Assembly (NCBI GenBank): GCA_012517355.1 | Contig: JAAYVD010000022.1 | Location: forward strand, 75,011 to 139,010 | DNA from: Candidatus Rifleibacteriota bacterium | Lineage (GTDB): Bacteria; Muiribacteriota; Ozemobacteria; Ozemobacterales; Ozemobacteraceae | Reading direction: 5' to 3' | DNA: 64,000 bases | Shown: positions 19,323 to 63,859 of the stretch, piece after piece | How positions within the stretch are numbered: the stretch's first letter is position 1 | Layout of the letters: each line of letters starts with the position of its first letter | Translations under genes and position numbers: made by a program | The notes under the pieces: generated by a model | Databases searched by the model: none | The model's input: the letters and a program-made list of their open reading frames with translations, nothing else | What the model was told of the DNA's origin: nothing

Positions 19323-19589
19323 GATCCCCTTCCTCGTCTCAATTCCCGGCGGATGGCCCTCGGGCGATGCGCGAAACGGAGGTTTCGCACGGCCACCCGT
19401 GGCGGCAAGGGGATCCTTCTGACGTCGTGTCGATCGCCTTCGCGCCCGGTGCGGCCCGATCGCTCAACACCGCCAGTGGTGGCGATACCGAGGCCACTTC
19501 GCATTTCGGAGGGAACGTTTTCCCGGTCCAGGGGGTGGGGGGTGGCGGCCGGTAACGGGCCGTCGGCGGCGGGCGGCGGGCCGCGCCGG

Positions 19590-24640: not shown

Positions 24641-24689
24641 ATCGGCATTTCGGGGAGAAAGGATGAGGTGGGGGCCTCTCCAGGGGCTG

Positions 24690-25163: not shown

Positions 25164-25223
25164 ATCCTCCCCATCGGCCGTTTGCGGGCCAGAATTGAGA
25201 GATGGGTGACCGTCAGGGGAAAG

Positions 25224-25925: not shown

Positions 25926-25927
25926 TT

Positions 25928-26557: not shown

Positions 26558-26567
26558 GGTGGTTCTC

Positions 26568-28445
26568 CTAGCCCTCTGGAGGAGGCTCGCCGGCTGGGGG
26601 TTCCCCGCCCCCGCCTTCCCCTTCGGCCGGAGGAGGGGGAGGCTCGGGAATCACGATCTTGCCGGCCAGGGAGAACTTGATGAAAAAACGCTCTTCATCG
26701 ATGGGAACCTCTTCCGTCGATTCGAGGGCGGATCCCTTGAAAAAGGTCGAGTTGTTCAAGGCCTTGAGATACTCGAAAACCCGGTCGGAGGTGTCGGTAT
26801 GGCCCGCCAGCCTGAACACCCGCGGATCGGACCGTACCTGCAAATGGGCGTTGGTGAGAAAGATCTGGCGGGGGGTCGAACTGGCGAGATCGAGCAGGAT
26901 CTCTGACAGCGGCACCTTGCTTGCCATCAGGGCTTCAGTCAGGCCAGCCTCTCTCCCCAAGAGGTCTTTTTCCGCGAGCAGCTGGGTAACCTCGGCCTGG
27001 GATTCCGTAAGGTCATTGAGGCGGGCTTCCAGTTTCTTGGTGTCGTTCTTGGCCTTGGTGACATCCTGGCGGATCTTCACCAAGGGGAAAGACCCCACGA
27101 GCAGGACGAAGACGACGAGCAGGCCGGCCAGGATCCGGAGCTTGCCCTCGTCGAGCTGCAGGCTGATGCCCAGCTTCTGGGCGAACCCTGCCCCGAATTT
27201 CGAACTCACGCCCGAGAAATCGATCGCCTGCGCTCTCCGGTTGGGATACATGATGTCGATGAAGTTGATCACCTTGGCGTCCCGCAGCCCGTCGTAGAGG
27301 GCAACTCCCACGGCCGGAGCCAGGGCGGGGGTTTCCATCGGCAGCCGGTCGGGGGGAAAATTGGTGCTTGTCGGCGACAACGTCTTGAACGGGTCGGCCA
27401 GCTCGGCCGGCACCTCGAGGCTTTCCTGGATGAACTCCTTGAAATTCTTCATGGCCGCCGTCCCGCCCGACAGGATGATGCGGTCGATGGCGGTCTCTCC
27501 GAATTGGGAGATGTAGAAACTGACCGACAACTGGATGTGCTGGAAGATCTTTTCAACGGTGGCGAAGATCTGCTGCCCGGCCCACTTCTCGGCCCCCTTC
27601 ATCGCCTGTACTTCGTCGGGAGGAAGGACGCCGATCTTGTGCTTCAGTTCGACCACCTCGTCGACCGTCTTGAACTCGATCTTTTGCCCGTCCACTTCCC
27701 CCCCCGCGAAGATGGCCTCGGTGATGGTCTCACCCCCCATGTTGATATCGCGGTAGAAGTTCAGAACCCCGCCCTTGTAGATCATGATCGAGGTGGTCTT
27801 GTGGCCACAATGGATCAGGGCCACCTTGCCCTTTTCCCCGGCCGACTTGATCCCGGCGGGGAGGGCCAATTCGAGGGCCTGGGGGAGGGTCAGGACCCCC
27901 TCGTTCGACAAACCCCCGCCCTTCAGGTTGTCGGTCATGATTTTGACGATGTCCTGCTGGAGGGCGGCCACCATGACCTGTTTGAGGGCCTTTTCCTCCT
28001 TGACGATTTCCCCGATTTCCTGCCAGCCGAAGACGGCTTTCTCCATCGAGAAGGGCATCTGCTTGGCGGCCTCGGCATTCACGCTGGCGGCGAAGGCCTC
28101 TTTCTCGGGGGTGGGGGGAAGCTCGAAATAGCGAATGGTCACCGGCCGCCCGCTGGCCAGGGTGATTCCCCGTTTCGTCTGGATCTGGTTGTCATACAAA
28201 AGCTCGGTCAGGTGCTTGGTCAGGAACTTGATGAGTTTCTGGATGGCGTCATTTTCGACGTCTTCGCGGCTCATCTTCTCACGCTCTTCCGCGGTCAGCT
28301 GATGGACGAACGGCGGTATGCGCAGGTGGGCAAGGGCTTTCAAGACGGGTTTCCCGTCGTCACCGGCGATGACGTGGACAAACTTCAGGGAAAAACTCCC
28401 TATGTCCACCGCCACGAAAGGTTCGAATTTCGCTGGATCAGCCAT
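26568..28445 (-). CDS. pilMN: PilM-PilN fusion: an actin-like ATPase-fold PilM domain fused to TM + PilN-like coiled-coil/periplasmic domains
   Basis: N-terminus VAVDIGSFSLKFVHV is the PilM/FtsA-like motif. An internal TM helix (LAGLLVVFVLLVGSFPLV) is followed by a coiled coil. The C-terminal tail is Pro/Glu/Gly-rich. Confidence 0.8.
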   Translation of the reverse strand: MADPAKFEPFVAVDIGSFSLKFVHVIAGDDGKPVLKALAHLRIPPFVHQLTAEEREKMSREDVENDAIQKLIKFLTKHLTELLYDNQIQTKRGITLASGRPVTIRYFELPPTPEKEAFAASVNAEAAKQMPFSMEKAVFGWQEIGEIVKEEKALKQVMVAALQQDIVKIMTDNLKGGGLSNEGVLTLPQALELALPAGIKSAGEKGKVALIHCGHKTTSIMIYKGGVLNFYRDINMGGETITEAIFAGGEVDGQKIEFKTVDEVVELKHKIGVLPPDEVQAMKGAEKWAGQQIFATVEKIFQHIQLSVSFYISQFGETAIDRIILSGGTAAMKNFKEFIQESLEVPAELADPFKTLSPTSTNFPPDRLPMETPALAPAVGVALYDGLRDAKVINFIDIMYPNRRAQAIDFSGVSSKFGAGFAQKLGISLQLDEGKLRILAGLLVVFVLLVGSFPLVKIRQDVTKAKNDTKKLEARLNDLTESQAEVTQLLAEKDLLGREAGLTEALMASKVPLSEILLDLASSTPRQIFLTNAHLQVRSDPRVFRLAGHTDTSDRVFEYLKALNNSTFFKGSALESTEEVPIDEERFFIKFSLAGKIVIPEPPPPPAEGEGGGGEPPAGEPPPEG

Positions 28446-28608
28446 CTTCTACCTGGTTTGCCCCTCGGTCGGGATGGGGAAGAAAATCCCTGGTCGCTTC
28501 CCCTGTCGGTGAAACGGTCTTCCCATGTATCGGATTCCAGAGGAGAACCCTCTATCTCTAGATTAACAAATCCCCGAAGGCTTGCACTCGGTCGGGTACC
28601 CTCGAACT

Positions 28609-28647
28609 CCAAAGAAAAACCGGCGCCCCTGGGAGCAGGGACGCCGG
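28609..28647 (-). terminator. Rho-independent terminator downstream of the pilin gene
   Basis: On the minus strand the GC-rich hairpin CCGGCGUCCCUG-CUCC-CAGGGGCGCCGG is followed by UUUUUCUUU. Confidence 0.65.
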
Positions 28648-28662
28648 TATCGAGGCTCGCAG

Positions 28663-29211
28663 TTAGAATTTGACCCGGCTGACGGACACCAGGATGTCGT
28701 CGCCATCATAATTAGGGCCAGCGACGGTGGTAACCGCATCCATCGCGCCATCGGGGCCGGCAGAATGGAGGTAGATGCCTTTGTTCCAGTGATAGTACTT
28801 GATCTTGGCGTCCCAGGCATCCATCATGAATTCTTCGGGGTTGCTGTCCATGTAGGGGCCCTTCCACCGCTTGGAATAGGCGTTGATCCCCATGTTGGTG
28901 AATGTTCCGGTAACCGTATTGTTGACCAGGACATTTTTGTCGTAGGTGGCATCGAGAGCAACGGTATCCGCCGCGTTGATGGTGTTGGCCGATGAGGTGC
29001 TAGTGGTGTGGGGGAAGCGGCCGAGGTCGTTGTTGTAGTTCACCAGGGCGGTCTTCAGGTTGGTCATCGCTGCCTTGGTGGCGGCCGATTTGCCCTGGTC
29101 GGTGATGCTGCCGATCATCGGGCCGGCGACCGAGGCCAGAACCGCGATGACGATGATGACGACCATGATCTCCATCAGGGTGAAGCCTGCCCGCCTCGAA
29201 AGCCTGTTCAT
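28663..29211 (-). CDS. Type IV pilin / GspG-like major pseudopilin (prepilin with class III signal)
   Basis: RRAGFTLMEIMVVIIVIAVLA is the prepilin cleavage/methylation motif. Downstream KAAMTNLKTALVNYNNDLGRFP resembles GspG/PilA. It has its own promoter and terminator. Confidence 0.85.
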   Translation of the reverse strand: MNRLSRRAGFTLMEIMVVIIVIAVLASVAGPMIGSITDQGKSAATKAAMTNLKTALVNYNNDLGRFPHTTSTSSANTINAADTVALDATYDKNVLVNNTVTGTFTNMGINAYSKRWKGPYMDSNPEEFMMDAWDAKIKYYHWNKGIYLHSAGPDGAMDAVTTVAGPNYDGDDILVSVSRVKF

Positions 29212-29250
29212 CGGAATCCTCCTGCTGATTGCATTTCCCGGTTCGAAGGC

Positions 29251-29279
29251 AATATAGGAAATTCCATCGGCATCGTCAA
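29251..29279 (-). promoter_or_regulatory. Near-consensus sigma70 promoter for the pilin gene
   Basis: On the minus strand TTGACG - 17 nt - TATATT, about 35 nt upstream of the ATG. A GGAGG SD follows. Confidence 0.5.
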
Positions 29280-29332
29280 CCTCCCGATCAAGGGGAAAAT
29301 TCCCCTCGACCTTCTTGGGCCTTTGGGGTACG

Positions 29333-31507
29333 TCATTGCGGCAAGAAAACGCATTTTCCCATTTCCACTTCCTCGGGGGTGACCTTGAAGGTCACGGCAG
29401 CCGATGCTGCCTGCTCCAGGAATCTGAACTCGTAGTGGTCTTCCGTATGGACCCTTCCCCCGTGGTCGCCGGTCGGGTAGGCCACCCGGAAGCGGATTTC
29501 GCCAGCGGGGCCGGTTTTCCCCGTCACCTGATACGGCAGGTGCATGGCACCGAAAGTGATCCAGAGCCTGGCCGTGTAGGCGACCTCCGGGGGGCCCTGG
29601 CCGAGGATTTCCGCTCCCTCCACCACTTCGAAGATCTTGGTGAGCGCTCTGGATTTTTTATTGGAGGTGAGGAACCGGCATCGGAACCTGGACACCCCTT
29701 CCCAGGCGATGTTCTCCCTCCCCTGGAGGCCGAAGGAATCGAACAATTGGGCGATGGGAAGGGTTGGGGATGCGTTCTCCACCGGTCGTGGGGCCCTTCC
29801 CTCTTCCCGCGCCAGGACCGCCTCCATGACTTTCAGACTTTCCAAGACATCGGGAGTCAGAAAAAGAAACCGGATGTTGGCCTTCCGGCATTGGGTGTAG
29901 AGGTCATCTGGCTTCAGGGAAAGGAAGAGACGGGACATGGTGGCCACGCCTCTTTGGGTGTTTGCGGCAACGGTAGGACGCTGTCCGTAATAGGCAATGA
30001 AATTTCCCTCGTCCCAGAAATTCAGAACCCCATAGGCAGGCATTGAACCGTCAGCATAGCCGCCAGGGTCCGGCGTATGTTCCCGGAGCCATTGGATCCC
30101 CTCGAAAACATAGGGTACAAGAGGGTTTGGCTGGAGGAGGGTGCTGAAATTCAGGTGGAGCGAAAGAAGCACCGGGATGGCCAACAAAGCTGCCGTCCTT
30201 CCCGCCTTCCAGCCACTTGTCGGGGAACCCCCGATTGGCTTCAACACGTGGAATAGGTGAAATAGGACCAGCCCCAGGAGCAGGCCATTCGCCGGGCCCA
30301 TCCAGCGGAAAAACCTCGTCTGGACCAGCCCCAATCCCATGGTGATGAAAGCCCAATGGACGAGGATCCATATGTTCGGAAGCTTGGGGGACCGGTCGTT
30401 GGGAAAAACGGCCAAGAGGAGAAAGAAAGGATACAGGCCAAACCGCTCGAAAATTCTGAGAAGGTGGGAATCGATCATTCCCCACCCGGAAACATTGAGA
30501 ATGGAGCCCATTTCCTGAACCGTGGCGAGAATGGGATCCGTCCTGGCAAGGAACATCCCGCCTTCCTGGAGGGTCTTTGGGAAAACCAGGGCGATCAGGA
30601 CGCTTCCCGCCCCCAGCATGGCGAATCGGAGCGAGGTGGGGATCTTTTCCCCCAACCTGCTCTCCATCTGGAACATCAGGAAGAAAAATGCCCCACCCAG
30701 GATAACCAACGAGGCGTGGATCCATCCAAAGCCATCGAAGATCGATCCCGAAACCATGGGCGGGTACCGGAGGAAATACAAGGCGATCACCCCTCCGCCA
30801 ACCAGCATGCCGGAACCGGAAAACTCGAAAATCGCCTCACACTCGGGTTTTTTTGCCAACCACAGGACCAGCATCCAGGCTCCGAACAGGCCGAAGAAAA
30901 ACGGCGCTCCCTGCCAGGTTGCCAGGAAAGCCGCGCAGACCGCCCCTCCTAGAATCTTGAGTTCCGGGGCTCGGGACTGCACGTATCGGGTGCACAGGAA
31001 AATCCAACTCCAGAGCCACAAGTTCTCCAGCCAATGGTGATCGACCCCGAGGAAAGAATTGGTCAGGGCCTGGGGAAACCCGGGGAGACTACCGAGGGCA
31101 ACCAGGCAGCAGAAAGGAAAATTCCTGGTCAGTTTCCAAAGGGTGAGAACCATGAACAGGCTCAGGATTACACCGCCCAGTGGAGGGAAAATCCCGATGA
31201 TCAGTTCTGGCTGGGAAGTCAGAGAGGGCATGATGGCAAATGCCAGCTGGGTGAATTTGACGAGAAACCAGAGGTAAAGGGGGGGGAAATTGACGGTAAA
31301 TGTATCCGGGAAGGTCATGTACCGGTCGGTTTCGAGAGGGCGGCCTTGAAGAAGGGATTGCTCGAACCACCGGAGATACAGAACCGAATCCGGGTCACCC
31401 ATGGGGAACTTGCCTTCCCAGGGATGACACAATTCCACTTTATTGAAGGCCCAAACGAGTTGGACCAAGAAGAGAGCAGCCAGGATCCAGACTTGGCGGC
31501 GGGTCAT
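29333..31507 (-). CDS. Polytopic GT-C-fold membrane glycosyltransferase with features like the STT3/AglB/PglB (GT66) oligosaccharyltransferase family
   Basis: About 13 TM helices followed by a ~230-aa C-terminal soluble domain. Loop-1 acidic motif GDPDSVLYLRWFE. A TVQE motif (compare TIxE/SVSE of EL5). FWDEGNFIAYY just after the last TM, at the position of WWDYG. It sits immediately upstream of the pilin gene. Confidence 0.5.
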   Translation of the reverse strand: MTRRQVWILAALFLVQLVWAFNKVELCHPWEGKFPMGDPDSVLYLRWFEQSLLQGRPLETDRYMTFPDTFTVNFPPLYLWFLVKFTQLAFAIMPSLTSQPELIIGIFPPLGGVILSLFMVLTLWKLTRNFPFCCLVALGSLPGFPQALTNSFLGVDHHWLENLWLWSWIFLCTRYVQSRAPELKILGGAVCAAFLATWQGAPFFFGLFGAWMLVLWLAKKPECEAIFEFSGSGMLVGGGVIALYFLRYPPMVSGSIFDGFGWIHASLVILGGAFFFLMFQMESRLGEKIPTSLRFAMLGAGSVLIALVFPKTLQEGGMFLARTDPILATVQEMGSILNVSGWGMIDSHLLRIFERFGLYPFFLLLAVFPNDRSPKLPNIWILVHWAFITMGLGLVQTRFFRWMGPANGLLLGLVLFHLFHVLKPIGGSPTSGWKAGRTAALLAIPVLLSLHLNFSTLLQPNPLVPYVFEGIQWLREHTPDPGGYADGSMPAYGVLNFWDEGNFIAYYGQRPTVAANTQRGVATMSRLFLSLKPDDLYTQCRKANIRFLFLTPDVLESLKVMEAVLAREEGRAPRPVENASPTLPIAQLFDSFGLQGRENIAWEGVSRFRCRFLTSNKKSRALTKIFEVVEGAEILGQGPPEVAYTARLWITFGAMHLPYQVTGKTGPAGEIRFRVAYPTGDHGGRVHTEDHYEFRFLEQAASAAVTFKVTPEEVEMGKCVFLPQ

Positions 31508-31721
31508 TTCACGGGTGCCTCATCAACCAAGGGGAAATGCCAAGGGATGCATGTTGCAAACCGTTTGCCTTCCTACTACTGTGGAATGTGTGATAAATTC
31601 GCGATCCGCTCAGGTGGGTGAATCTTCAGGGTAACCGGATCTGCCGGGTTTGTCCAGATTTCTATGAGGCCCCCAGCCCGCCGTCCGGATCGATCCGCGA
31701 CCGAAGACAGGTGATGCCGGG

Positions 31722-48912: not shown

Positions 48913-50208
48913 ATGGATAAAGCATTCACCGGGAAGAAGGGCATGACCCAATGGACCGGCCTCGAGCCTCCGAAACTCCTGGCCGTCGCCGTCCAACTGC
49001 CCGACCAGACCGACGAGCAGGTGACCGCCTCCCTCGACGAACTGGCCGAGCTGGTTCGCACCGCGGGAGGGCGGCTCGTCGGCCGGGTCGTCCAGAAGCG
49101 GGAACGGCAAGACCGGAACTCCTATCTCGGGTCGGGGAAGATGCGCGAGGTCGGCGAGGCCGCCAAGGCGGCCGGAGCCGTCCAGGTGATCACCGACGAC
49201 GAACTGACCGGGCTCCAGATCCGCCGGATGGAGGAAGGAACGGGGTTTCCCGTCATCGATCGCACCCGGGTCATTCTCGAGATCTTCGCCATGCACTCCA
49301 CGACCCGCGAAGGGAACCTGCAGGTCGAACTGGCCCAGGTCCAGTATGTTCTCCTCCGTCTGGCCGGCGGCTACGAGGGTTTTTCCCGCCAGCGCGGCGG
49401 CATCGGGACCAAGGGACCCGGGGAAACCCAGATCGAGACCGACCGCCGCGTTCTCAAGGTCAAGGTCAAACGCCTGCACGACGAACTGGCCCAGGTGGTC
49501 CGCACCCGTGACCTGCAGCGCCGGAAGCGGGCGGAGCGTTTTTCGCCGCTCTTCTCCCTGGTCGGGTACACCAACGCCGGCAAGTCCACCCTCCTCAACG
49601 CCTTGAGCGGCAGCCGGGTCGCCACTTGCGATGGCCTGTTCACCACCCTCGACCCCACCGCCCGGCTCGTCCAGATGCCCAGCGGCCGCTCGGGCATCCT
49701 GTCCGATACGGTCGGGTTCATCCGCAAGCTTCCCCATGGCCTGGTCAAGGCCTTCCGCGCCACTCTGGAAAGCGTCCTTCAGTCGCAGGTGATCGTGCTG
49801 GTCGCCGACGTTTCCCACCCGGGGGTGCGCGACCACATCGCCGCGGTGGAGGAGGTCCTGCGCGAGATCGGGGCCCTCGAGATCGAGCGGCTGATGGTGT
49901 TCAACAAGATCGACCTGGTCCCCGCCGGGTCCTACGAGGGCCTGGCCGGCGCGTTCCCGGAGGCCCTTTTCGTCTCGGCCCGAACTGGCGCGGGGCTCGA
50001 TCTTCTGCGCTCCCGCATGGACGAGATCCTCGGGCGGCAGTTCGCGGAGGTCGTGCTCGAGCTTCCTGCGAAAGACCCCATCCTGCGCGACATCCTGGCC
50101 ATGGGCCCCCCCCTTGAACAGCATTGGGAGGAGGGACGGGTGCGGGTACGGGTGGCCCTGCCGCGGCTCTTTCTGCCCCGGGTCAAACGGTTCCTGGCGC
50201 GATCCTGA
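48913..50208 (+). CDS. hflX: GTPase HflX
   Basis: HflX N-domain. G1 GYTNAGKSTLLN, G3 DTVGF, G4 NKID. Confidence 0.9.
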   Translation: MDKAFTGKKGMTQWTGLEPPKLLAVAVQLPDQTDEQVTASLDELAELVRTAGGRLVGRVVQKRERQDRNSYLGSGKMREVGEAAKAAGAVQVITDDELTGLQIRRMEEGTGFPVIDRTRVILEIFAMHSTTREGNLQVELAQVQYVLLRLAGGYEGFSRQRGGIGTKGPGETQIETDRRVLKVKVKRLHDELAQVVRTRDLQRRKRAERFSPLFSLVGYTNAGKSTLLNALSGSRVATCDGLFTTLDPTARLVQMPSGRSGILSDTVGFIRKLPHGLVKAFRATLESVLQSQVIVLVADVSHPGVRDHIAAVEEVLREIGALEIERLMVFNKIDLVPAGSYEGLAGAFPEALFVSARTGAGLDLLRSRMDEILGRQFAEVVLELPAKDPILRDILAMGPPLEQHWEEGRVRVRVALPRLFLPRVKRFLARS

Positions 50209-50239
50209 CTACCGGGACCCGTTTGGAAACTACCGTCCG

Positions 50240-50386
50240 GTCAAGGGCTAACGGACCGCGGTGCGGAGCTTCCGCGAGGGGAACGCGTTAGCGTTCCCCT
50301 CGCCACCAGAAAGGGTCCAGGGCCATCGGCCCTGGTGGGGTGAAGGGGCAAAGCCCCTTCGGCAAGCCTTTATGCGGACCATTGTT
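50240..50386 (+). repeat. Copy 1 of a conserved ~150-nt hairpin/palindrome-rich intergenic element (family R1)
   Basis: About 93% identical to the reverse complement of 56370-56526. It contains four perfect palindromes/hairpins: GCGGA-GCU-UCCGC, GAGGGGAACGC-GUUA-GCGUUCCCCUC, CCAGGGCC-AUC-GGCCCUGG and GAAGGGG-CAAAG-CCCCUUC. Confidence 0.8.
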
Positions 50387-50590
50387 GGGAAAAGGGCCAC
50401 CGGCGGTCAAGCTGAGGGTGGGGGGGGAATGGCCGGCACGGTTGGAAGGCGCCTCGGGTGAGGGTGAGAGGATGTGGTGCAAGTCCATCACACTTGCGAT
50501 ACAATGGCGCGGGCGGTTCATCGCCCTCCGGGACCGAAGATGGTCGACCGGGGTACCCCGGGAAAATCGAGGCAGGAAAAGGCAGACGAC

Positions 50591-51281
50591 GATGAAAAGG
50601 AACGTGTGGCTGGGGTTTTTGGTGATGTTGGTTCTGGTGGCCGGGCCGGTATCCGAGGCATGGGCCCAGGCCGAGACCTGGGAGGCCTACGAGATCAATG
50701 CCCAGTACCGCGGCGGGGTCAAGAAAGGGTTCGATGAATTGGGGTGCGGCGTCGGTGGGTACATTTCCCTGCCCGACGGCAACCGCGAGATCGTCTTCCA
50801 TGCCTGCGTCAAGGACCCTGAGAAACGGCAGAAGTTTTACGGCATGCGTCTCCGGATGGTCTACTCCTTCGACGGGAAGGGCCAGGTCAAAACCGTCACC
50901 GAGAAATACGCCTGGTTCGACAATTTCGAAAAGCAGCACCAGGACCAGATCCGCGACATGATCCTGCTGTTGGGCACCATCAAGGACGGGTCTCTTATCC
51001 AGGCGGCTCTCAAGCAGGTGATGATCAATGCCACCACCATCGTGCTCGACGGCAAGACGGGCTCCGGTGGCAAGTCGATGGAGCTCGGCATCCAGCGGCC
51101 AGGGAAGCCGATCCTGGAAGGGAAGTTCTTCCTCAAGAACGCCAGCTCCGCCTGGAACCTGACCAAGTTTCGCATGAAGCGCGGCAAGGTTTCCGTGTCC
51201 TTCGTGACGAATCCGCTGGCCCAGGTCCAGGCCGAATACCAGGCCAAGGAGCCGTTCTCCCGCGTGGTCTTCGGTCGGTGA
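50591..51281 (+). CDS. Secreted hypothetical protein (230 aa)
   Basis: Signal peptide MKRNVWLGFLVMLVLVAGPVSEAWA. Balanced composition. I chose the ATG at 50591; the longer ORF from 50340 runs through the R1 element. Confidence 0.6.
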
Positions 51282-51302: not shown

Positions 51303-51412
51303 GCCGACCGACCGGATGTCGGAAGGGCTTTCCCCCTGCCGCTGCGGAGGGGGGCGCAAAACGGCAGCTCCGCGCATCGCAAGGGGGCCGACCGCTATGC
51401 TGTCGGCCGTTC
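51303..51412 (+). repeat. Copy A of a second intergenic repeat family (R2)
   Basis: It shares two conserved boxes with 53996-54108: CCGATGTC(G/C)GAAGGGCTT(T)CCCCCT and GCGCATCGCA(A/G)GGGGGCCGACCG. Confidence 0.6.
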
Positions 51413-51509
51413 CCCCCCTGTGACAAGGGGGGAGGCGTGAAACACCCGTTTTGCCCCTCGCCAGGGGGTTCTCCCCTCCCCCCATCCCTTCCTCACGGAT
51501 GACACCCCT

Positions 51510-53837
51510 GTGACCCCGACCCCTGCTCCCCGGCCGGGAGGGGGGGGGGGCGGCGCCCGTCGGGCACTTTTCTCTGGAACCCTGTTCTGGAGTGCTTTTC
51601 TGCTGTTCTCCATCCAGCCGTTGGCTGCCAAAAGGCTGTTGCCGGTGCTCGGCGGCGCGGTCGGCGTGTGGACGGGATGCCAGTTGTTCTTCCAATTGGT
51701 CCTCCTGGCAGGGTACGCGCTCGCCCACCTGGGACTGCGCGGGCTGGGGGCGGCCCGCCACCCCCCCACCCACGCTTTGTTGCTGGCCTTCGGTCTGCTG
51801 TCCGGGCCGTCCCGGCTGGGTCGGCTGGCCGGGCTGGATGCCCACTCCGCCCCGGTCTGGTTCCTCTTCCGCGAGTTGGGCGGGGCGGTGGGGTTCCCGC
51901 TGCTGGTCATGGCCGCCCTGGCTCCCGCCCTGCAGGCCTGGTTCGCCGTCGGAACCAGGCCCGGGGACGGCGATGATCCCTATCCCTTGTACGCCGCCAG
52001 CAATCTTGGCAGTCTGTCGGCGTTGCTGGCCTATCCCCTGCTCATCGAACCGTTCATTCCTCTGACCGCACAAGCCGGTTGGTGGGAAGATGGGTATTTC
52101 CTTCTGGTTCTGCTGGTCGTAGGATGCGCCGTTTCGACGGTCGCCGTGCCTGGGACCGGAGGGGCCGCGACTTCCGGTCAGGTTGCTGCCAGCGAAGGGC
52201 CGGCGAAGCCATTTTCCTCTGTCGGGCGGCCTGCCGGTCCATCCGGCTCCCCAACCATCGCTTCACCCGTCTCCTGGAGCCGCCGGTGCTCCTGGCTCGG
52301 CTGGGCGTTCCTGCCCACCAGCCTGATGCTGGGCATCACCTCCCAGACCACGATGGACATGGCCCCATTCCCTCTCCTGTGGACCCTTCCACTGGCCGTC
52401 TACCTGCTGACCTGGATGATGGCCTTCGCCCGGTCCCCGCGCTGGCGGGCGGGAGCCTGGCTGGACTGGGCCGTTCCCGGCCTCCTGGCCTGGGCGGCGG
52501 TCATCCATGTGTTGTTCGTGGTCTCCCCCGCCTGGCTGGTGGCGGGGTTCTACCTGGCCGTCCTGTTCGTGGCCGGGCTCGAATGTCACGGCCGGCTGTT
52601 CCTCGACCGCCCCGAAACTCAGGAACTGACCGGGTTCTACTTGGTGACCGCGATGGGAGGGGCCTTGGGAGGGATGTTCAACGGGTGGGTGGCGCCCCAG
52701 GTCTTCCGGCGGTTGCACGAGTTGCCGCTGGTGCTCGTGGCGATCGCCCTCGCTTTTTCCGCGGTGCGAACCCGGTCTTCGGGGTCTCTGACCCGGTTCT
52801 GGAAAGCCGCCGCCTTGCCCCTGGCCGTCGGAGGCTGCTTCCTGTGGTTTGGCGGGCTGGAAATGAATGACCAGTTCTGGTTCAAAGCGGCCTGTCTGGC
52901 GTCCGCCGTCGCCCTGGCGGCCCTGGGCGGTCTCCACGGCGTCCTGTTCGGGCCCCTCTTCGCCCTGGCCCTGGCCGGGGGAAGCCTGATCTGTTTCTCC
53001 CGTCCGGGTGTCCTCGCCGAGGCGCGGAGCTTCTTCGGGACCTATCGCATCCAGGCGAGCGCCACCGGCGCCCACCGGTATCTCATGCACGGCAACATCC
53101 ACCACGGCGGCCAGAAGTGGCTGCCTCCCGGGGAGCGAAACCGGCCTTTCTATTACTACATCCGCGAAGGGCCGGTGGGCGAGGTGTTCCGGGAACTGCG
53201 TCGGCGGCGGGGTCGCCGGATCTGCGTGGTGGGGCTCGGGGCGGGAACCCTGGCCTGCTACCTTCGCCCTTGGCAGGAGATGGTCTTTTTGGAGATCGAT
53301 CCCGTCATGGCTCGGCTGGCGGCGGATCCGTCGTTGTTTTCCTTCCTGGCCGATGCCGCGGGGCCCTGCCGCGTGGTCGAGGGGGATGCCCGCGTTTCGC
53401 TTGCCTCACGCGTTCAGGGGCCCTTCGATCTCATCGTCCTGGACGCCTATTCCTCGGACGCCATCCCCCTGCATCTGCTGACCCGGGAAGCCCTGGACGT
53501 CTATCTCTCCCGGCTCGCCCCCGACGGGTGGCTGATGTTCCACGTGTCCCACCGCACCCTCGACCTGGAGCCGGTCGTGGGCAACCTGGCTTTGGCCGCA
53601 GGACTGTCCGGACTCTCGGCCGGTTTCCGACCGGACCAGGCCTCCCAGCGGCTGAAATACGACGATGAGGACACGCCTTTCGTCTTCAGTTCCCATTGGC
53701 TCATCCTTGCCCGCTCTCCCGACCTTCTCGCCCCGTTTCGGGGCAGCCGGCTTTGGAAGTCGATCCGCGTGGCCCCGGGGTCCCCCGTATGGACGGATGA
53801 GATGTCCAGCGTCCTGTCCGCCTACACCTGGGAATGA
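51510..53837 (+). CDS. Fusion protein: N-terminal polytopic (MFS-like) membrane domain plus C-terminal spermidine-synthase-like (class I MTase fold) domain
   Basis: About 12 TM helices. The C-terminal CVVGLGAGTLACYL...FDLIVLDAYSSDAIPLHLLTREAL is a polyamine aminopropyltransferase-like motif. GTG start, with a G11 homopolymer in codons 10-15. Confidence 0.8.
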   Translation: MTPTPAPRPGGGGGGARRALFSGTLFWSAFLLFSIQPLAAKRLLPVLGGAVGVWTGCQLFFQLVLLAGYALAHLGLRGLGAARHPPTHALLLAFGLLSGPSRLGRLAGLDAHSAPVWFLFRELGGAVGFPLLVMAALAPALQAWFAVGTRPGDGDDPYPLYAASNLGSLSALLAYPLLIEPFIPLTAQAGWWEDGYFLLVLLVVGCAVSTVAVPGTGGAATSGQVAASEGPAKPFSSVGRPAGPSGSPTIASPVSWSRRCSWLGWAFLPTSLMLGITSQTTMDMAPFPLLWTLPLAVYLLTWMMAFARSPRWRAGAWLDWAVPGLLAWAAVIHVLFVVSPAWLVAGFYLAVLFVAGLECHGRLFLDRPETQELTGFYLVTAMGGALGGMFNGWVAPQVFRRLHELPLVLVAIALAFSAVRTRSSGSLTRFWKAAALPLAVGGCFLWFGGLEMNDQFWFKAACLASAVALAALGGLHGVLFGPLFALALAGGSLICFSRPGVLAEARSFFGTYRIQASATGAHRYLMHGNIHHGGQKWLPPGERNRPFYYYIREGPVGEVFRELRRRRGRRICVVGLGAGTLACYLRPWQEMVFLEIDPVMARLAADPSLFSFLADAAGPCRVVEGDARVSLASRVQGPFDLIVLDAYSSDAIPLHLLTREALDVYLSRLAPDGWLMFHVSHRTLDLEPVVGNLALAAGLSGLSAGFRPDQASQRLKYDDEDTPFVFSSHWLILARSPDLLAPFRGSRLWKSIRVAPGSPVWTDEMSSVLSAYTWE

Positions 53838-53995
53838 TCCCTGGAATCCGGACGGGGTCAGGGGGAACGGCCCGATCCACACCAGGTGGGAAGTGGGCCG
53901 CAGGCGCCACGGATGGCGCTCCTCCGCAGACCCGACCGGCACGAGGCCGGATGAGCCTGCGGCCATGAATGGGGGCCCACAACGCGAGTTGCCAG

Positions 53996-54108
53996 CCTCG
54001 CCAGGGGGCAGACCGGACCCGATGTCCGAAGGGCTTCCCCCTCGCCGCCAAGGATGACGGGGGGAGACCGTCGCTTCGCGCATCGCAGAGGGGCCGACCG
54101 ACAGTCTG
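53996..54108 (+). repeat. Copy B of intergenic repeat family R2
   Basis: See 51303-51412. It ends about 27 nt before a near-consensus sigma70 -35 box. Confidence 0.6.
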
Positions 54109-54134
54109 GCTGGTCTTCCGGGAAAACCGGTGCT

Positions 54135-54163
54135 TTGACTTGTAGGGGGGTTCCCGGTATCAT
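54135..54163 (+). promoter_or_regulatory. Near-consensus sigma70 promoter for the 54208 gene
   Basis: TTGACT - 17 nt - TATCAT. A GGGGGAG SD lies 7 nt before the GTG start. Confidence 0.5.
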
Positions 54164-54207: not shown

Positions 54208-55008
54208 GTGCTGAGATTTCTGGTGTTCCTCGGGCCGGTTCTCATGGTGTGCGTGTGTGTGGGAGGCGCTGGGCTTCCCGCGTTCGGGCAGGAGGAGGAA
54301 CCTGCCGTCTCCGACCCTCTCGGAGATCTTGAAAACCGGTTCTTCGAGGCTTTGGCCGGAGGGCAGGCGGGACAGGCGGAAGAGCTTTTGCGGGCCGCGC
54401 TGGCCGATGGCCGGTTGACCGGCAAGGACCCCCTCGAAGCCAACCTCCTGGTGGCCCTGGGCAACCATTTCTGTGAAGCGGGGAGCGTGGGCTCGGCCTG
54501 TTTCTGGCTGGAAGGGGCGGTGACGAGGTATGGCTCCCTCCCGATGGATGATGCCGGTGAGCAGACCTATGCCAGCGCCCTCGGGGCCAAGATCGCCTGG
54601 CTGAAAAGCGGTGGGGTCAGATCCTGGGTCGAGAAGGAGCCCGCCGTTCTGGCCCGAAAACTCTTCCAGGCCCTTTCCCGTGCCGACCGTGCGACCCTCG
54701 AAGGCTCCCTGGCCCTGTTCGACATCTACCTGGGGTGGTGGCAGAGCGAGCTTGAACCTGTCACCCGGGAGGAACTCCTCGCCTTCCTCGAATCCCACCG
54801 GGGAGGCACCCTCACGTGGGCCAACGAGCCCGAGGTCATCGCGCAAAGCCCCAAGGGCGACACTGTCATTTACATGAACATTCGTGGGTGGAAGGACATT
54901 GAGGGGTATTCGAACATCCAGTTTGCCATCCACCCCGTCGCCGCGGGAGGTTGGGAGTGGCGTGGCATCGTTCTTGGCGAAGACCAGACCGCTTCATCCA
55001 CTCCCTGA
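54208..55008 (+). CDS. Secreted hypothetical protein (266 aa)
   Basis: Signal peptide MLRFLVFLGPVLMVCVCVGGAGLPAFG. Helical, balanced composition. Confidence 0.6.
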   Translation: MLRFLVFLGPVLMVCVCVGGAGLPAFGQEEEPAVSDPLGDLENRFFEALAGGQAGQAEELLRAALADGRLTGKDPLEANLLVALGNHFCEAGSVGSACFWLEGAVTRYGSLPMDDAGEQTYASALGAKIAWLKSGGVRSWVEKEPAVLARKLFQALSRADRATLEGSLALFDIYLGWWQSELEPVTREELLAFLESHRGGTLTWANEPEVIAQSPKGDTVIYMNIRGWKDIEGYSNIQFAIHPVAAGGWEWRGIVLGEDQTASSTP

Positions 55009-56329: not shown

Positions 56330-56369
56330 TACCTTGGCTTTCGGCAGGGCACCGAATACTGGAAAAAAA

Positions 56370-56526
56370 ACAATGATTCGCAAAAAGGCTTGCCGAAGGG
56401 GGCTTTGCCCCTTCACCCCACCAGGGCCGATGGCCCTGGACCCTTTCTGCTGGCGAGGTGAACGCTGACGCGTTCCCCTCGCGGAAGCTCCGCTTCGCGG
56501 TCCGTTAACCCTGGACCGGATGGTAG
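56370..56526 (-). repeat. Copy 2 of the conserved hairpin/palindrome-rich element R1, on the minus strand
   Basis: Its reverse complement aligns to 50240-50386 with about 11 mismatches in 147 nt. It lies between the Flp-pilin terminator and the SH3b gene promoter. Confidence 0.8.
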
Positions 56527-59150: not shown

Positions 59151-61100
59151 CTACCGTGGGGGGGCCGCCCTCGTGATCCCCCACGGGTCAACACCATCGG
59201 GGAAGCCCGTTTTCAGGCGGTAATCATAGGTTCCCCCGTCCACATCCTTGACGAAGACTGGGCGGGTGGACAGATTCCCGGTTGTCGAGGCGCATCCGAC
59301 ATGGTCCTGCCCGGTGGGGAACCCGGAAATCGCGTTGGGGCCGAAAACCGGGGCCGGAGAATCCCCAGCGAGGTGCTCGATGCCCTTCACGCCTTGGCCG
59401 CCCGGACTACGGTCAGCCACGAGGATGTTCTTCTGGACGAGCATGACCCCTTCGTCGATCCTGATCCCGTAAGGGGAATCAAACGTGTTATAGGTGACGT
59501 CCGGGAGGAGGGCGGCGATATGCAGGCCAACGCCCGTCGCCGAGACGAAAAGGTTGTTGCTGACCAGGAGCGTGCCCCCGGACTCCTCTGTAAACAAGCC
59601 GAATTCGACGAATTCCAGGATGTTGTTTCCGATGAAGGAGATTTCGGAATTCTGGGAGGAACTGATTCCCCGGAGGCAATGGAAGAGGGTGCACCCACTG
59701 ATCTTGGTTCCAATGTTCTCCCTGAGATCCATTCCCGTGGCGGAAAACTCGATCGTCCAGCTGGCCAGGGACAAACCCTGGGTCTGGCTGGCGACCACCC
59801 CCGTCTGGCAGTGATGCAGGCGGGAATCGGCAAAGGTGCCCGTGGCGTTGGTCAGCAGGAGTCCCGTCGCGGCATATCCCAACGTGACGTTGACGAGGGC
59901 TGACTTTTGGGGGGTGTTGGACGTGAACGTGATCCCTCCCCAATCCCCGGCAGCGGGCAGGGCTTTCCCGGAGGACAGGACGATGGGGAAATCGTTGCCG
60001 GCGCTGGCGATCAAGGCTCCCTTGACGGTGATCTCCACCAGATTGGGGTTCCCCCACTTCATGGCATCGTAGTCGGCCATGACCACCTCGACCCCCGGAT
60101 CGATGTGCAGGATGCCGGTCGATTCGATCTTCAGGTCCCCCGCGAGATGGTAGGGGCTGTTGCCACGGGTCCAGGTGACTTCCTGGGTGAGGTTCCCGGG
60201 AATGAGCATGGAAACAGGCTCGGAAGGGCCGCTTTCGTTGCCTGCCAGATCGACGGCGGTGACCCGGTAGAAATATTTCTTCCCGGTGATGACGCCGGCA
60301 TCGACAAACCGCTCCTGGCCACGGGAAATCAGGACCCCCTCGATGGCCGAGAAGGTTCCCGCCAGGCTTTCGCCGCGATAGATGCGGTAACCCTTGAGGT
60401 CCCTTTCCGAATTGGCCGACCAGAAGATCGTGACCGAGTTCGGCAGTTCGGTGAGCGCCGCGGCGACCCCTTTCGGGGGCTCGGGAAGCTTCTCGTCGTC
60501 AAACGTCGCCTGGGTCACGAACGAATGTCCGGAGGAGGTCTCGGACGGCCGATTCTGCCGTGAGGCCACGATCCGGAAGAAATACTTGGTGTTGGGTTTC
60601 AGGTCGGTGATTTCCAGGGAATGCAGGGTGGCATACTGTCCGCCCGGTTCGCGGACGGTCCTGCCCAGCGAAGAGGTCTCCCCGTATTCGACGATCCCGT
60701 TGGTGTAATCGGTGGTCTTCCAGGAGATCAGGGCGGTGGTGGCCGAGACCTCCTTCACCTCCACGTCGCGGAAATCGAAGCTGGCGGTTTCCATGACGAC
60801 TTTCTGCAGGACCGAGGTCGCGCCCGAATAGATGGCCGCCCGGAAGGAGGTGTCGCGGTACCCGGCGAGCTGGGCGACGAATTCCTGTTCCCCGAAACCG
60901 ATCCCCTCAACGTGGAACTTCCCATCGGTGCCAGTCCTTCCCCAGCGGGTCCGGTCGACGGTCCAGCTGACCAGCACGGACGGAAGGACCACCCCGGCGG
61001 TGTCGTAGACGGTTCCTTCGAGGGCCCCTTCGCGCGGGGTGACATTGTTGCCCGTGTCGCAGCCGATGAGCAGGAATCCGGTCATGACGGCCAGGATCAT
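59151..61100 (-). CDS. Lipoprotein with a carboxypeptidase-regulatory-like domain, two fibronectin type III domains and a right-handed parallel beta-helix (pectate-lyase fold) domain
   Basis: Lipobox MILAVMTGFLLIGC. FN3 signatures PNTKYFFRIVA and KKYFYRVTAVDLAGNES. The beta-helix region has repetitive N/G/S-rich strands. The longer ORF start at 61289 is an alternative. Confidence 0.7.
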   Translation of the reverse strand: MILAVMTGFLLIGCDTGNNVTPREGALEGTVYDTAGVVLPSVLVSWTVDRTRWGRTGTDGKFHVEGIGFGEQEFVAQLAGYRDTSFRAAIYSGATSVLQKVVMETASFDFRDVEVKEVSATTALISWKTTDYTNGIVEYGETSSLGRTVREPGGQYATLHSLEITDLKPNTKYFFRIVASRQNRPSETSSGHSFVTQATFDDEKLPEPPKGVAAALTELPNSVTIFWSANSERDLKGYRIYRGESLAGTFSAIEGVLISRGQERFVDAGVITGKKYFYRVTAVDLAGNESGPSEPVSMLIPGNLTQEVTWTRGNSPYHLAGDLKIESTGILHIDPGVEVVMADYDAMKWGNPNLVEITVKGALIASAGNDFPIVLSSGKALPAAGDWGGITFTSNTPQKSALVNVTLGYAATGLLLTNATGTFADSRLHHCQTGVVASQTQGLSLASWTIEFSATGMDLRENIGTKISGCTLFHCLRGISSSQNSEISFIGNNILEFVEFGLFTEESGGTLLVSNNLFVSATGVGLHIAALLPDVTYNTFDSPYGIRIDEGVMLVQKNILVADRSPGGQGVKGIEHLAGDSPAPVFGPNAISGFPTGQDHVGCASTTGNLSTRPVFVKDVDGGTYDYRLKTGFPDGVDPWGITRAAPPR

Positions 61101-61285
61101 GGGCACCAAGGCGGTCGGGGAGGGAAGCCAACGGCCGCCCGTGGCTGGTCGTGACGGGGTGGGCCGGCGCTCGGTGAGGGGGGAGGGCCCCATGGCCATG
61201 CGCGAAGATGGCGTTTCGCGCTGCCATCCGCGGCGGCCAATGGGCGCTTCCGACATCCTGTCGGTCGGACCCTTCCCGTCACTCC

Positions 61286-63859
61286 TCATTTGACGCGCCC
61301 CAGGGCTTCGTGCACGAAGCGTTCGATCTGGGAATGCCGGGGGGCGTGTTTCTGGGCCTTGACGAAGCAGGCCTTGGCCTCGGGCATGAGGCGCTTCTCC
61401 TCGTAGGCGAGCCCCAGGTTGAAGCAGGCGTAGGGATCCTGGGGGGTCAGGTTGACCACCCGCACCAGGGTTTCGATGGCCGAGTCGGGGTCATGGTGGT
61501 CCATGTAGGCCATGCCGAGGTTGTAGAGGGCATAGGTGTCCTCGGGGTTGATCTCGATGGCATGGGTGAAAGCCATGATCGCCTCGTCGAGCTGCCCTTG
61601 TTCGTAGAAGGACATGCCGAGGTGGGAATACGAGTAGGCGTCGTCGGAATCGAGTTCGATGGCCTTGGAGAAGGCCTTGATGGCCATCTGGAGGCGTCCG
61701 GAGTTCTTGTAGATGACTCCCAGGCTGTATTGGGAAAAGGCGTCGTCGGGGTTGAGTTCGATGGCCTTCTTGAAGGACTCCTCGGACCGGGGAAGGTCGC
61801 CCAGGGACCGATAGATGGTGCCGAGGAGATAGTGGGCGAAGAACTGCTTGCCGTCGAGCCGGATGGCCATCATGACGCAGTTGAGGGCGTTCTCGATCTG
61901 GTTGAGGTTCTTGTAGACCGCGCCGAGACTGACCAGGGCGGGTACGTGATCCTCCTTGATGCGCAGGAGTTCTTCCAGGACGTCCCGGGACTCCTCGATC
62001 AGGCCGTTGTTCTTGTAGATGAGTCCGAGGACGAACCGGCTCTCGATATCGCCGGGGTTGAGACGGATCGTCTTCTTGATGGCCTGGACCGCTTCCTCGA
62101 GCATGCCCTGGTTGAAGTAGGCCTTGCCGAGGTGGAAGAAGGCTTCGCGGAACTCGGGGTCGAGTTCGATGGTCCGTTGCCAGGCGCGGATGGCATCGGT
62201 GGAATGGCCGATGCTCTTGTAGGCGATGCCCAACTGCAGGTGGGCATGGGAGAACTCCGGGTCGATGGCGATGGCCTTCTCCCACTCCCGGATGGCTTCG
62301 TCGAGCATGCCCTTTTCCTTGTAGGCGAGGCCGAGCCGGTAATGGGCCCCGGCGTTTTCGGGGTTGATCGCCACCGAGCGCTTCCAGCGCACCAGGTTCT
62401 GGTCGTCGATGCCCTTGAGGCGGTAGATCACCTCGAGGTTGTAGTGGGCGAAGGAGTCGTAGGGGTTGATGGCCAGCACCTTCCGGTATTCGAGAATGGC
62501 CTCGTCGTACATCTCCTTGTTCTTATAGGCGGAAGCCAGCTTGTAGTGAGCCTCGGCGTTGTTGGGATTGTTGACGATCTCGGTCTTGTACCGCTCGATC
62601 ATCATGTCGAGTTCACTCTTGGCCCGCACCGGGGGTTGCGGGGGTTTCTCGGGGGTGTCCTGGCTCTCGTTCTTCTTGCGCTGGTCGGCGGCCTTGCGCC
62701 AGTGGCTGACAGCCAGTTCGCACTGCCCCTTGACGTCGTAGATCTCTCCCAGCAGGTCGTTGGCCCGATGCAGGCCCTGGTCGAGGTAGAGCGCCCGCTT
62801 CAACTCACCCACCGCCTCGTCGAGCATGCCGCGGTCCTTGTAGGCCTGGCCGAGGCTGAAGTGCAGTTCGGCGTCGTTCGGGTTGAGGCCATTCTCGAGC
62901 TTGAATTCGTCGATGGCCTTCTGGGTGTCCCCCTTCTTGCGCAGGACGGTGCCGATGAAGAAATGCAGCCGGGGGAACTTCGGATCGAGCTTGAGGGCGC
63001 GGCGGAACTCGGCCAGGGCAGCGTCGTCCATGGACTTGCGCAGCAGGGCCTGGCCCAGAAAGACCCGGGCCTCGACCAGGTCGGGGCTGATGTCCAGGAC
63101 GCGCTTGAGCGCCTCGATGGTCTCGTCGAACCGGTTGGCGTAGAAGTGGGCGAGGCCGAGGTTGAGGAAGGTAAAGGCGTTTTCCGGGTTGAGGTCGATC
63201 GACTGTTTCAGCACGGCGACCGCCTCGTCATACTGCCGCGCGGCGATGAAAGCCCGGCCCAGTTGGCACAGGGCGTAGGAATCCTGCGGGTTGAGCAGGA
63301 CGGCCTTCTTGAACTCGACCACCGCTTTCTTGCTGCGTCCCACCTCCAGGTAGGTGGAGCCCAGCGCGAAATGGGCGTAGGCGTAGTCGTGATTCAGGTC
63401 GATGGCGTTGCGGAACCGGACGATGGCCTCGTCGTAGAGTTTCTTCAATTTGAAGATCAAGCCGAGCTGCAGGTGCGCGAAGGCGAAATCGGGTTTCAGG
63501 GAGATGGCCTTCTTGAACCGGATGATGGCCTCGTCGAACATGCCCTTGTGCTTGTAGATCACCCCGAGGTTGGCATACGGGAAGGCGTAGTTGTTGTTGA
63601 ACATGATCGCCTTCTTGAACTCCGTGATCGCCTCGTTGATCAGGCCCTTGTTCCGGTACGACAGGCCCAGGAAATTGTGGGCGTAGGCGTCCTTCTGGTT
63701 GATCGAAATGGCTTCCTTGAAGACGTTGATCGCCTCGTCGTTCTCCCCGGTCATCTCGAGGGCCCGGGCCAACTGGTAGTAGGCGAAAAAGTCGCGGGGA
63801 TTGGCGCTGATGCGCTTCTTGCAATCCTTGATGATCTGTTCGAACTTCTGTTCTCTCAT
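61286..63859 (-). CDS. Large TPR-repeat protein (about 24 TPR units)
   Basis: An uninterrupted series of 34-aa units of the form AxAxxxLGxxYxxxGxxxEAIxxFxKAIxLxP. Confidence 0.85.
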   Translation of the reverse strand: MREQKFEQIIKDCKKRISANPRDFFAYYQLARALEMTGENDEAINVFKEAISINQKDAYAHNFLGLSYRNKGLINEAITEFKKAIMFNNNYAFPYANLGVIYKHKGMFDEAIIRFKKAISLKPDFAFAHLQLGLIFKLKKLYDEAIVRFRNAIDLNHDYAYAHFALGSTYLEVGRSKKAVVEFKKAVLLNPQDSYALCQLGRAFIAARQYDEAVAVLKQSIDLNPENAFTFLNLGLAHFYANRFDETIEALKRVLDISPDLVEARVFLGQALLRKSMDDAALAEFRRALKLDPKFPRLHFFIGTVLRKKGDTQKAIDEFKLENGLNPNDAELHFSLGQAYKDRGMLDEAVGELKRALYLDQGLHRANDLLGEIYDVKGQCELAVSHWRKAADQRKKNESQDTPEKPPQPPVRAKSELDMMIERYKTEIVNNPNNAEAHYKLASAYKNKEMYDEAILEYRKVLAINPYDSFAHYNLEVIYRLKGIDDQNLVRWKRSVAINPENAGAHYRLGLAYKEKGMLDEAIREWEKAIAIDPEFSHAHLQLGIAYKSIGHSTDAIRAWQRTIELDPEFREAFFHLGKAYFNQGMLEEAVQAIKKTIRLNPGDIESRFVLGLIYKNNGLIEESRDVLEELLRIKEDHVPALVSLGAVYKNLNQIENALNCVMMAIRLDGKQFFAHYLLGTIYRSLGDLPRSEESFKKAIELNPDDAFSQYSLGVIYKNSGRLQMAIKAFSKAIELDSDDAYSYSHLGMSFYEQGQLDEAIMAFTHAIEINPEDTYALYNLGMAYMDHHDPDSAIETLVRVVNLTPQDPYACFNLGLAYEEKRLMPEAKACFVKAQKHAPRHSQIERFVHEALGRVK

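Follow-up and report, generated by a model that had tools for sequence, protein, structure and literature searches.

What are the two similar segments that flank a fused major facilitator superfamily (MFS)/spermidine synthase gene of Candidatus Rifleibacteriota bacterium, and is their resemblance a sign that they control the genes beside them? The locus lies in a 64,000-nucleotide (nt) stretch of contig JAAYVD010000022.1 (GenBank assembly GCA_012517355.1), which at its full length is referred to here as the window and in whose numbering all coordinates are given unless another source is named. An initial annotation had noted that the segments, each about 110 nt long (51303-51412 and 53996-54108), share two boxes separated by a spacer, and had taken this layout to fit a two-site regulator binding region or a short structured RNA. 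According to our analysis they most likely belong to a new family of selfish repeats that is specific to a lineage of Candidatus Riflebacteria and whose members are small, non-coding and structured (palindromic), of the same kind as the Rickettsia palindromic elements (RPE) and the REP, MITE and MIRU repeats. We refer to this family as R2. The reading is built on what the sequences demonstrate, namely membership in a family, the potential to form structure, in-frame copies inside genes, the lack of intact copies at orthologous sites, and a spread of ages among the copies.

The two segments belong to a dispersed repeat family

The similarity between the two segments is real and not due to chance. 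In a pairwise alignment they show 76% column identity and are thus homologous, a repeat finder run on the window groups them as one family (D10), and both carry the two boxes that had been described; a pattern built from these boxes, GATGTCNGAA-N7-16-GCCGC-N24-28-TYCGMGCAYSGC, has four matches in the window as against 0.00 expected from 100 shuffles. They do not, however, form the two-copy pair as which they had been presented. The window contains at least seven R2 units at five loci. Five are good copies, named A to E and recognized by repeat search and direct reading; the others are degenerate tandem partners, of which A' and B' were detected with a profile of the copies and B'' less clearly (nhmmer E=3.1, covariance model E=0.71, plus reading of the sequence). 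The copies and the features that matter for their interpretation are as follows.

51304..51389, + strand: R2 copy A, 84-nt class, 81% identity to the family consensus, covariance-model score 80 bits
51388..51468, + strand: R2 copy A', degenerate, 81 nt, direct tandem partner of A, 64% identity to the consensus
51510..53837, + strand: fused MFS/spermidine synthase gene, between arrays A/A' and B''/B'/B, used as the anchor for orthologous loci
53871..53928, + strand: R2 copy B'', a probable third unit, truncated and very degenerate, which retains GGAAGTG and GCCACGGATGGCG
53932..54008, + strand: R2 copy B', degenerate, in tandem with B, nhmmer E=7e-4
54009..54095, + strand: R2 copy B, 84-nt class, covariance-model score 65 bits, with a TGA in one frame
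54135..54163, + strand: sigma-70-like promoter TTGACT-17-TATCAT of gene 54208-55008, outside R2
19354..19436, - strand: R2 copy C, intergenic between a STAS-like gene (19590-19949) and a HEAT-repeat gene (start 19322), covariance-model score 85 bits
21478..21558, + strand: R2 copy E, 81 nt, in frame inside open reading frame (ORF) 20461-22344, covariance-model score 84 bits
61186..61268, - strand: R2 copy D, in frame within gene 59151-61289, covariance-model score 87 bits

The family extends beyond the window. The metagenome assembly to which the window belongs (ENA ERZ928041, where it lies on a 173-kb contig) has seventeen further units in about 70 kb of its other contigs; the loci L017, L018 and L019 on these were chosen because their proteins contain R2. 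A related metagenome-assembled genome (MAG), GCA_964554555.1, carries two perfect tandem units at locus L003. With the nhmmer profile, 25 units are identified in about 148 kb of sequence (the window, L003, L012, L017, L018 and L019), their E-values ranging from 7e-4 to 1e-28; none of them lies in L012, a second locus of the related MAG. A covariance model applied to nine sources (206 kb, of which L020 is largely a duplicate of the window) recovers the same set. R2 is dispersed at a density of about one unit per 10 kb. When two sequence collections were scanned with the box pattern, genome_contigs yielded one true locus (L003) along with three chance matches, and metagenome_contigs no true R2 locus along with seven chance matches; that these scans are nearly empty indicates that the family is either rare or too diverged for an exact pattern. 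Comparison with Rfam gave no match at gathering threshold for the window and nothing overlapping the R2 repeats of L003 at E<=1.

Anatomy and predicted fold of the R2 unit

The R2 unit is 81 or 84 nt long, starts with CCGACCGACAC and ends in GGGGCC, the two length classes differing by GGC after GGAAG. What had been described as a variable spacer of about 45 nt between the boxes is in fact constrained: in none of the copies does the distance between GCCGC and box 2 (TTCGCGCAYCGC) deviate from 26 nt, and two conserved hairpins lie within the spacer. As RNA or as single-stranded DNA the unit is predicted to form a small hairpin, H1 (5 bp, CCGAC-N5-GTCGG), followed by a three-way junction whose closing stem, H2 (CCCCTTTGC/GCAAAGGGG), encloses the hairpins H3 (CGCC/GGCG) and H4 (GCGAAAC/GTTTCGC). 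These four helices are supported by RNAalifold for the first seven copies and by pair counts for 23 copies, in which 85.6% of the helix cells are paired; with the 3' partners slid out of register the share is 37-47%. Only H2 and one pair of H1 show compensatory changes: in H2, pair 33:81 is UA (11) or CG (9) and pair 35:79 UA (11) or GC (4), and in H1 there is a single such change, in copy B (CGGAC/GTCCG). The best-preserved R2 copy folds with z = -5.4 relative to shuffles; the window copies fold no better than their shuffles (z -0.1 to -1.5), as is expected for decayed members of the family. Pairing of box 1 (GATG..GAA) with box 2 (TTC..CATC) in a pseudoknot or closing helix was also considered and was rejected on account of uncompensated changes in three copies.

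At A, B, L003, L017, L018 and L019 the units stand in direct head-to-tail arrays of two to three. They repeat with a period of exactly one unit, and the 3' CCGACCGAC of a unit also serves as the first H1 arm of the unit that follows.

A further property of the unit is the openness of its reading frames. Taking the 23 copies together, 123 of the 138 frames are open as against 80 +/- 5.5 in shuffles, and 13 of the copies are open in all six frames where 0.9 would be expected; the consensus has no stop codon in any of the six. Since the copies are related to each other, this excess should be taken as a feature of the consensus.

In-frame copies inside genes

About half of the arrays are intragenic. 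They lie in frame and in both orientations within intact genes, with homology of the host to other proteins on both sides of the repeat. A search of the protein collection with six-frame translations of R2 returned four Riflebacteria proteins with internal copies (P0121, P0122, P0123 and P0124). Three blocks of the GlcNAc-2-epimerase-like P0122 match its homologues, and the two insertions that are lacking in six out of six aligned homologues coincide with three tandem R2 units and with one degenerate unit on the opposite strand. In the AlphaFold2 model of this protein (predicted TM-score, pTM, 0.81) the predicted local distance difference test score (pLDDT) falls below 50 only at the N-terminus (residues 1-42) and in the R2 segments (265-328 and 468-510), which are modelled as coil between regular elements. 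Judged by this model, and for this one protein only, an R2 insertion would be compatible with the fold of its host as a surface loop. The PPDK-like P0123 contains two R2 arrays, one of them within the PPDK_N domain, and its sequence to either side of them is colinear with that of its paralogue. The LTA synthase P0124, P0121 and a PQQ-propeller protein encoded at L018 carry R2 in other frames, so that across the host proteins the repeat is read in five of its six frames.

Two of the window copies are of this intragenic type. The host ORF of copy E (20461-22344) is uninterrupted, encodes an SLH domain, an acidic linker and two CarboxypepD_reg domains, and is annotated elsewhere as one gene of 626 amino acids (aa); no orthologue of the protein was close enough to provide an empty site. 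The acidic low-complexity linker (DPDPDADADADSESDVDPD) is encoded at 21620-21700, just downstream of copy E, which therefore lies in a region that was probably already disordered. Copy D is located between the ancestral, ATGA-overlapped start codon (61289) of a lipoprotein gene and the sequence for the lipoprotein signal peptide. It belongs to about 50 extra codons that are lacking in the orthologues of the more distant relatives L013 and L015, and the assembly's own annotation gives a 712-aa form for this gene. The ATGA overlap is with the stop codon of the preceding gene and is likewise present in relatives; that gene (61286-63859, - strand) encodes an 857-aa protein which consists almost wholly of TPR repeats and gives rise to a 102-nt periodic DNA family (D1).

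Since a unit comprises a whole number of codons and its consensus is open in six frames, insertions into genes add 27-28 residues per unit and leave the frame unbroken. Such insertions would survive where the extra loop is tolerated.

But might each copy itself encode a small conserved ORF or leader peptide? One frame does yield a conserved 27-residue peptide that starts with ATG (M-S-E-x-P-x-C-R-x-G-W-x-R-E-T-P-V-S-R-x-A-x-G-P), the sole indel between copies is 3 nt long, and the tandem period corresponds to 27 codons. Substitutions, however, are distributed over the three codon phases as 27/23/28 and thus show no periodicity, copy B has an in-frame TGA and copy C an ACG in place of the ATG, and host proteins make use of five different frames. 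We regard this explanation as barely credible.

The intergenic copies and the corresponding loci of relatives

Copy A begins 23 nt past the stop codon of gene 50592-51281, and about 40 nt separate the end of A' from the GTG start codon (51510) of the MFS/spermidine synthase gene. The protein product of the latter is 100% identical to one from a Candidatus Riflebacteria MAG. On the other side of that gene, the 370-nt spacer that leads to gene 54208 is made up mostly of three R2 units, followed by the promoter region. The orthologous locus L012 of GCA_964554555.1 encodes an MFS protein that is about 80% identical and has kept the gene order, but both flanks of the MFS gene are free of intact R2, and the spacers there measure 60 and 170 nt as compared to 228 and 370 nt in the window. 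In the more distant L013 and L015 these spacers are 25 and about 100 nt long, and the MFS locus is without R2 in both. A and B with their tandem partners are old, decayed intergenic members of the family that fill most of two spacers which are short in relatives.

The promoter TTGACT-17-TATCAT does lie just downstream of copy B, as had been stated, although at a distance of about 32 nt rather than 27. A promoter scan found this site once as against 0.1 expected, and in L012 (at about 11421-11449), where R2 is lacking, it is conserved almost base for base, including the spacer. This conservation suggests that gene 54208 has a functional sigma-70-type promoter in this candidate phylum. The promoter is independent of R2.

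These findings bear directly on the idea that R2 is a cis-regulatory element, be it that the boxes (GATGTCGGAAG/TTCGCGCATCGC) are operators bound by a regulator or that the unit is a leader RNA or riboswitch for the downstream gene. Copies A and B are indeed oriented like the + strand genes that flank them, as the initial annotation had it, and the intergenic window copies A, B and C stand upstream of, and point in the same direction as, the downstream gene; B moreover adjoins a conserved promoter, and a conserved fold exists. Other copies, however, are found between convergent genes, right after stop codons, in antisense and inside ORFs, and the flanking genes are functionally unrelated. Copy B is located upstream of the promoter and therefore outside the transcript of gene 54208, the orthologous site in L012 has kept the promoter and not an intact R2, and degenerate copies are tolerated. 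From the proposed short structured RNA there remains the conserved potential for secondary structure, whereas a dedicated cis-regulatory RNA does not agree with the mixed contexts or with the lack of an Rfam match. Likewise, a two-site regulator binding region is at odds with the occurrence at unrelated loci and inside ORFs and with the lack of intact copies at the L012, L013 and L015 sites. Further copies do exist, then, and the boxes are not conserved at orthologous sites: the repeat family foreseen by the initial annotation is borne out by copies in the window, in the same assembly and in the related MAG, and a regulatory role of its members appears very improbable.

Age and mobility

R2 copies are 64-99% identical to the consensus. 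All those in the window are old (64-85%), while those of the other MAG are close to it (95-99%). As third codon positions of orthologous genes of the two genomes are only 62-78% identical, the near-consensus copies point to recent spread from a conserved master, to transfer between lineages or to constraint by a mobilising machinery.

Might the units instead form a dispersed minisatellite, similar to MIRU/VNTR loci, whose units multiply at G4/C4-rich hairpins through slippage, gene conversion or microhomology-mediated repair? Head-to-tail arrays with an exact 81/84-nt period would be expected from such processes, a direct repeat, CCC(C/T)CGC(G/C)CAGGGG, flanks the extra DNA at site A, and the lack of terminal inverted repeats, target-site duplications and a transposase fits this view. 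Recombination of this sort accounts for arrays but not easily for dispersal to many unrelated sites in both orientations, and copies that are 95-99% consensus-like are hard to explain by it where synonymous sites of the two genomes are near saturation. We therefore think a minisatellite unlikely, though it deserves to be kept in mind.

Several observations also weigh against the reading as a selfish repeat or limit the force of the argument for it. R2 has no terminal inverted repeats, the reverse complement of its 3' end (GCAAAGGGGCC) being unlike the 5' end; the flanks of 12 arrays revealed no consistent target-site duplication; and no transposase is found among the scanned window genes or in the gene tables of the fetched loci, which together represent about 170 kb of non-redundant sequence. 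Because of this, movement of R2 is something that we infer and have not seen. In L012 a GGCAGGG-N5-CCCCTGCC hairpin is left at site A and a fragment resembling box 1 at site B, and with these remnants insertion in the window is not distinguishable from deletion in the relative. The fraction of about half for intragenic arrays is biased upward, as L017-L019 were found through R2-containing proteins. All sequences are metagenome assemblies, and the inserts in genes are observed at the DNA level. The shuffle statistics overstate significance since the copies are related to each other. Finally, five of the six arrays between co-directional genes point the same way as the genes; this bias is not significant, but it could hint at a role at the RNA level.

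Enterobacterial REP and BIME elements have been reported to protect mRNA 3' ends or to punctuate operons, and R2 could correspondingly be a domesticated REP-like RNA, selfish in origin, whose intergenic stem-loops are now kept because they protect upstream mRNAs from 3' exonucleases or punctuate operons. Copies A and D and the array at 18216 of L019 start 0-25 nt after the upstream stop codon, and the fold is GC-rich and stable, which together with the shared orientation just mentioned would suit this function. On the other hand, the orientation bias lacks significance, the window copies have no folding excess over shuffles and many copies are decayed, a U-tract is lacking, and a relative manages without intact copies at the same operon junctions. 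A domesticated RNA of this sort strikes us as quite improbable.

If R2 is a family of selfish repeats, as we favor, it would spread as DNA mobilised in trans by an enzyme that is not encoded nearby. As the mobiliser, a HUH/tyrosine transposase that recognises hairpins, of the RAYT or IS200/IS605 type, would be the most natural candidate. Gains and losses of units in arrays would come about through slippage or through unequal recombination between the ends of units, and effects on neighbouring genes, such as on the stability of mRNA 3' ends, would be incidental. A bolder version of this proposal is that R2 is a currently active mobile element shaped for coding sequence, with its multiple-of-three length, six open frames and peptides that are disordered and compatible with loops, and that it is mobilised without inverted ends or target duplication. 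We put this forward tentatively, as a possibility for which the odds are somewhat unfavorable at present.

Comparison with known repeat families

The RPEs reportedly go back to the work of Ogata et al. in 2000 and 2002. They are short dispersed repeats with the capacity to form hairpins, which occur in intergenic regions and, inserted in frame in ORFs, in intact conserved genes, with about half of the sites being intragenic (PMC10969869; PMC3733652). Their copies span a range of decay and a dedicated transposase is not known (PMC10969869; PMC3733652). In its hairpin potential, its intergenic and in-frame intragenic locations at similar shares and its varied decay, R2 comes closer to the behaviour of RPEs than to that of any other known system. 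The hosts are very different, though, RPEs being found in AT-rich, obligate intracellular alpha-proteobacteria and R2 in a candidate phylum of high GC content, presumably free-living, that is represented here by an anaerobic-digester metagenome. Different from RPEs, whose units measure about 105-150 nt and form one long palindrome, R2 has units of 81/84 nt, a multi-hairpin fold, direct tandem arrays and at least five reading frames in use. The CGTC end tag of RPEs is lacking in the R2 consensus, which has TGTC in H1 (CGTC at this place in 5 of 23 copies). It is by tag, host and description that we set R2 apart from RPE.

REPs are GC-rich extragenic stem-loops that are present in many copies and whose mobilisation in trans is attributed to a tyrosine (HUH) transposase recognising hairpins (PMC3733652). 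R2 resembles REP, BIME and REPIN elements in having GC-rich stem-loops in multiple copies, often just downstream of genes and sometimes inside them. A REP, however, is a single 20-40-nt palindrome tagged GTAG/CGTC, whereas R2 has 81/84 nt, four helices and neither tag in its consensus, and REPs typically form inverted dimers as opposed to the exclusively head-to-tail arrangement of R2. No gene for a RAYT/Y1 transposase was seen in the sequence available, which does not extend to whole genomes.

With MITE-like elements (Correia/NEMIS, ERIC, BOX, Nezha) R2 shares its small size, intergenic and occasionally intragenic positions with open frames, and the ability to fold as RNA (PMC10969869; PMC3184786). 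Of the two features that define MITEs, terminal inverted repeats are lacking in R2, whose ends (CCGACCGAC.../...GGGGCC) are not inverted repeats of each other, and no target-site duplication was seen that is consistent among the 12 array flanks. The mycobacterial interspersed repetitive units (MIRUs), in turn, have units of 40-100 bp at tens of loci, where they stand in short direct tandem arrays between operon genes of like orientation. They contain open frames that overlap with the adjacent genes, and they are lacking in the homologous regions of one related species (PMC3184786). R2 is similar in its short direct tandem arrays at many loci and in the lack of intact copies at orthologous sites of relatives. 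MIRUs are described as intergenic, in contrast to the intragenic arrays of R2 in both orientations, and on the strength of this description the two are kept separate.

Other features of the window

The initial annotation had mentioned another repeat, R1, and this too proves to be dispersed. R1 is 157 nt long and present in the window as an inverted pair (50230-50386, + strand, and 56369-56526, - strand; 92-94% identical) that brackets a 6-kb block with both R2 arrays. Further copies with 76-92% identity are found at 12515-12665 and 8154-8238 of L017 and at 13402-13532 of L018, that is, on other contigs of the same assembly, which makes R1 a second dispersed repeat family and not a local feature. 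Between hflX and the gene for a 229-aa secreted protein, L012 (7076-8173) has two extra minus-strand genes, one of 124 aa and one of 190 aa with a pilin-like N_methyl motif; their counterpart in the window (50208-50592) is only a 384-nt spacer, which contains R1.

The 5' end of the MFS/spermidine synthase ORF includes, at 51540-51556, a homopolymer run of about 12 G that encodes PGGGGGG and could be a hot spot for assembly error or slippage. The NCBI gene model begins downstream of this run and is 730 aa long as compared to 775.

Elsewhere in the window, five to six tandem 39-nt (13-codon) repeats of about 75-85% identity (5653-5886) sit in a long GC-rich ORF region (5645-7717, - strand) without a Pfam match. 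A giant ORF of about 2500 aa (8212-15810, - strand) has internal repeats spaced by about 921-927 nt (families D4, D7 and D8) and is probably an array of repeated extracellular domains. The region 22493-31510 (- strand) holds a type IV pilus/type II secretion-like cluster with a secretin, PilO and a T2SSG-like pseudopilin, next to glycosyltransferases and a radical SAM/B12 enzyme, none of which is related to R2.

Implications

To our knowledge, in-frame selfish repeats in functional genes have been described as a peculiarity of Rickettsia and are still rare. A clear second case in an uncultured phylum would mean that the phenomenon is not tied to the reductive genomes of intracellular bacteria. 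In Riflebacteria gene models R2 also accounts for unaligned inserts and N-terminal 'extensions', and between genes for unusually long spacers, and it cautions against calling conserved intergenic boxes regulatory before the genome has been checked for further copies. An epimerase-like barrel, an LTA synthase, a PPDK-like ATP-grasp domain and the leader of a lipoprotein are among the hosts, and their natural loop insertions would be a tractable set in which the tolerance and recruitment of foreign segments by proteins can be studied. Should R2 indeed be an active mobile element, it would be an independent counterpart of RPE in a free-living, high-GC organism. In metagenome-assembled genomes it would then systematically give rise to 'insertions' and to gene calls that are too long, and it would represent a general way for selfish DNA to add loops to enzymes.

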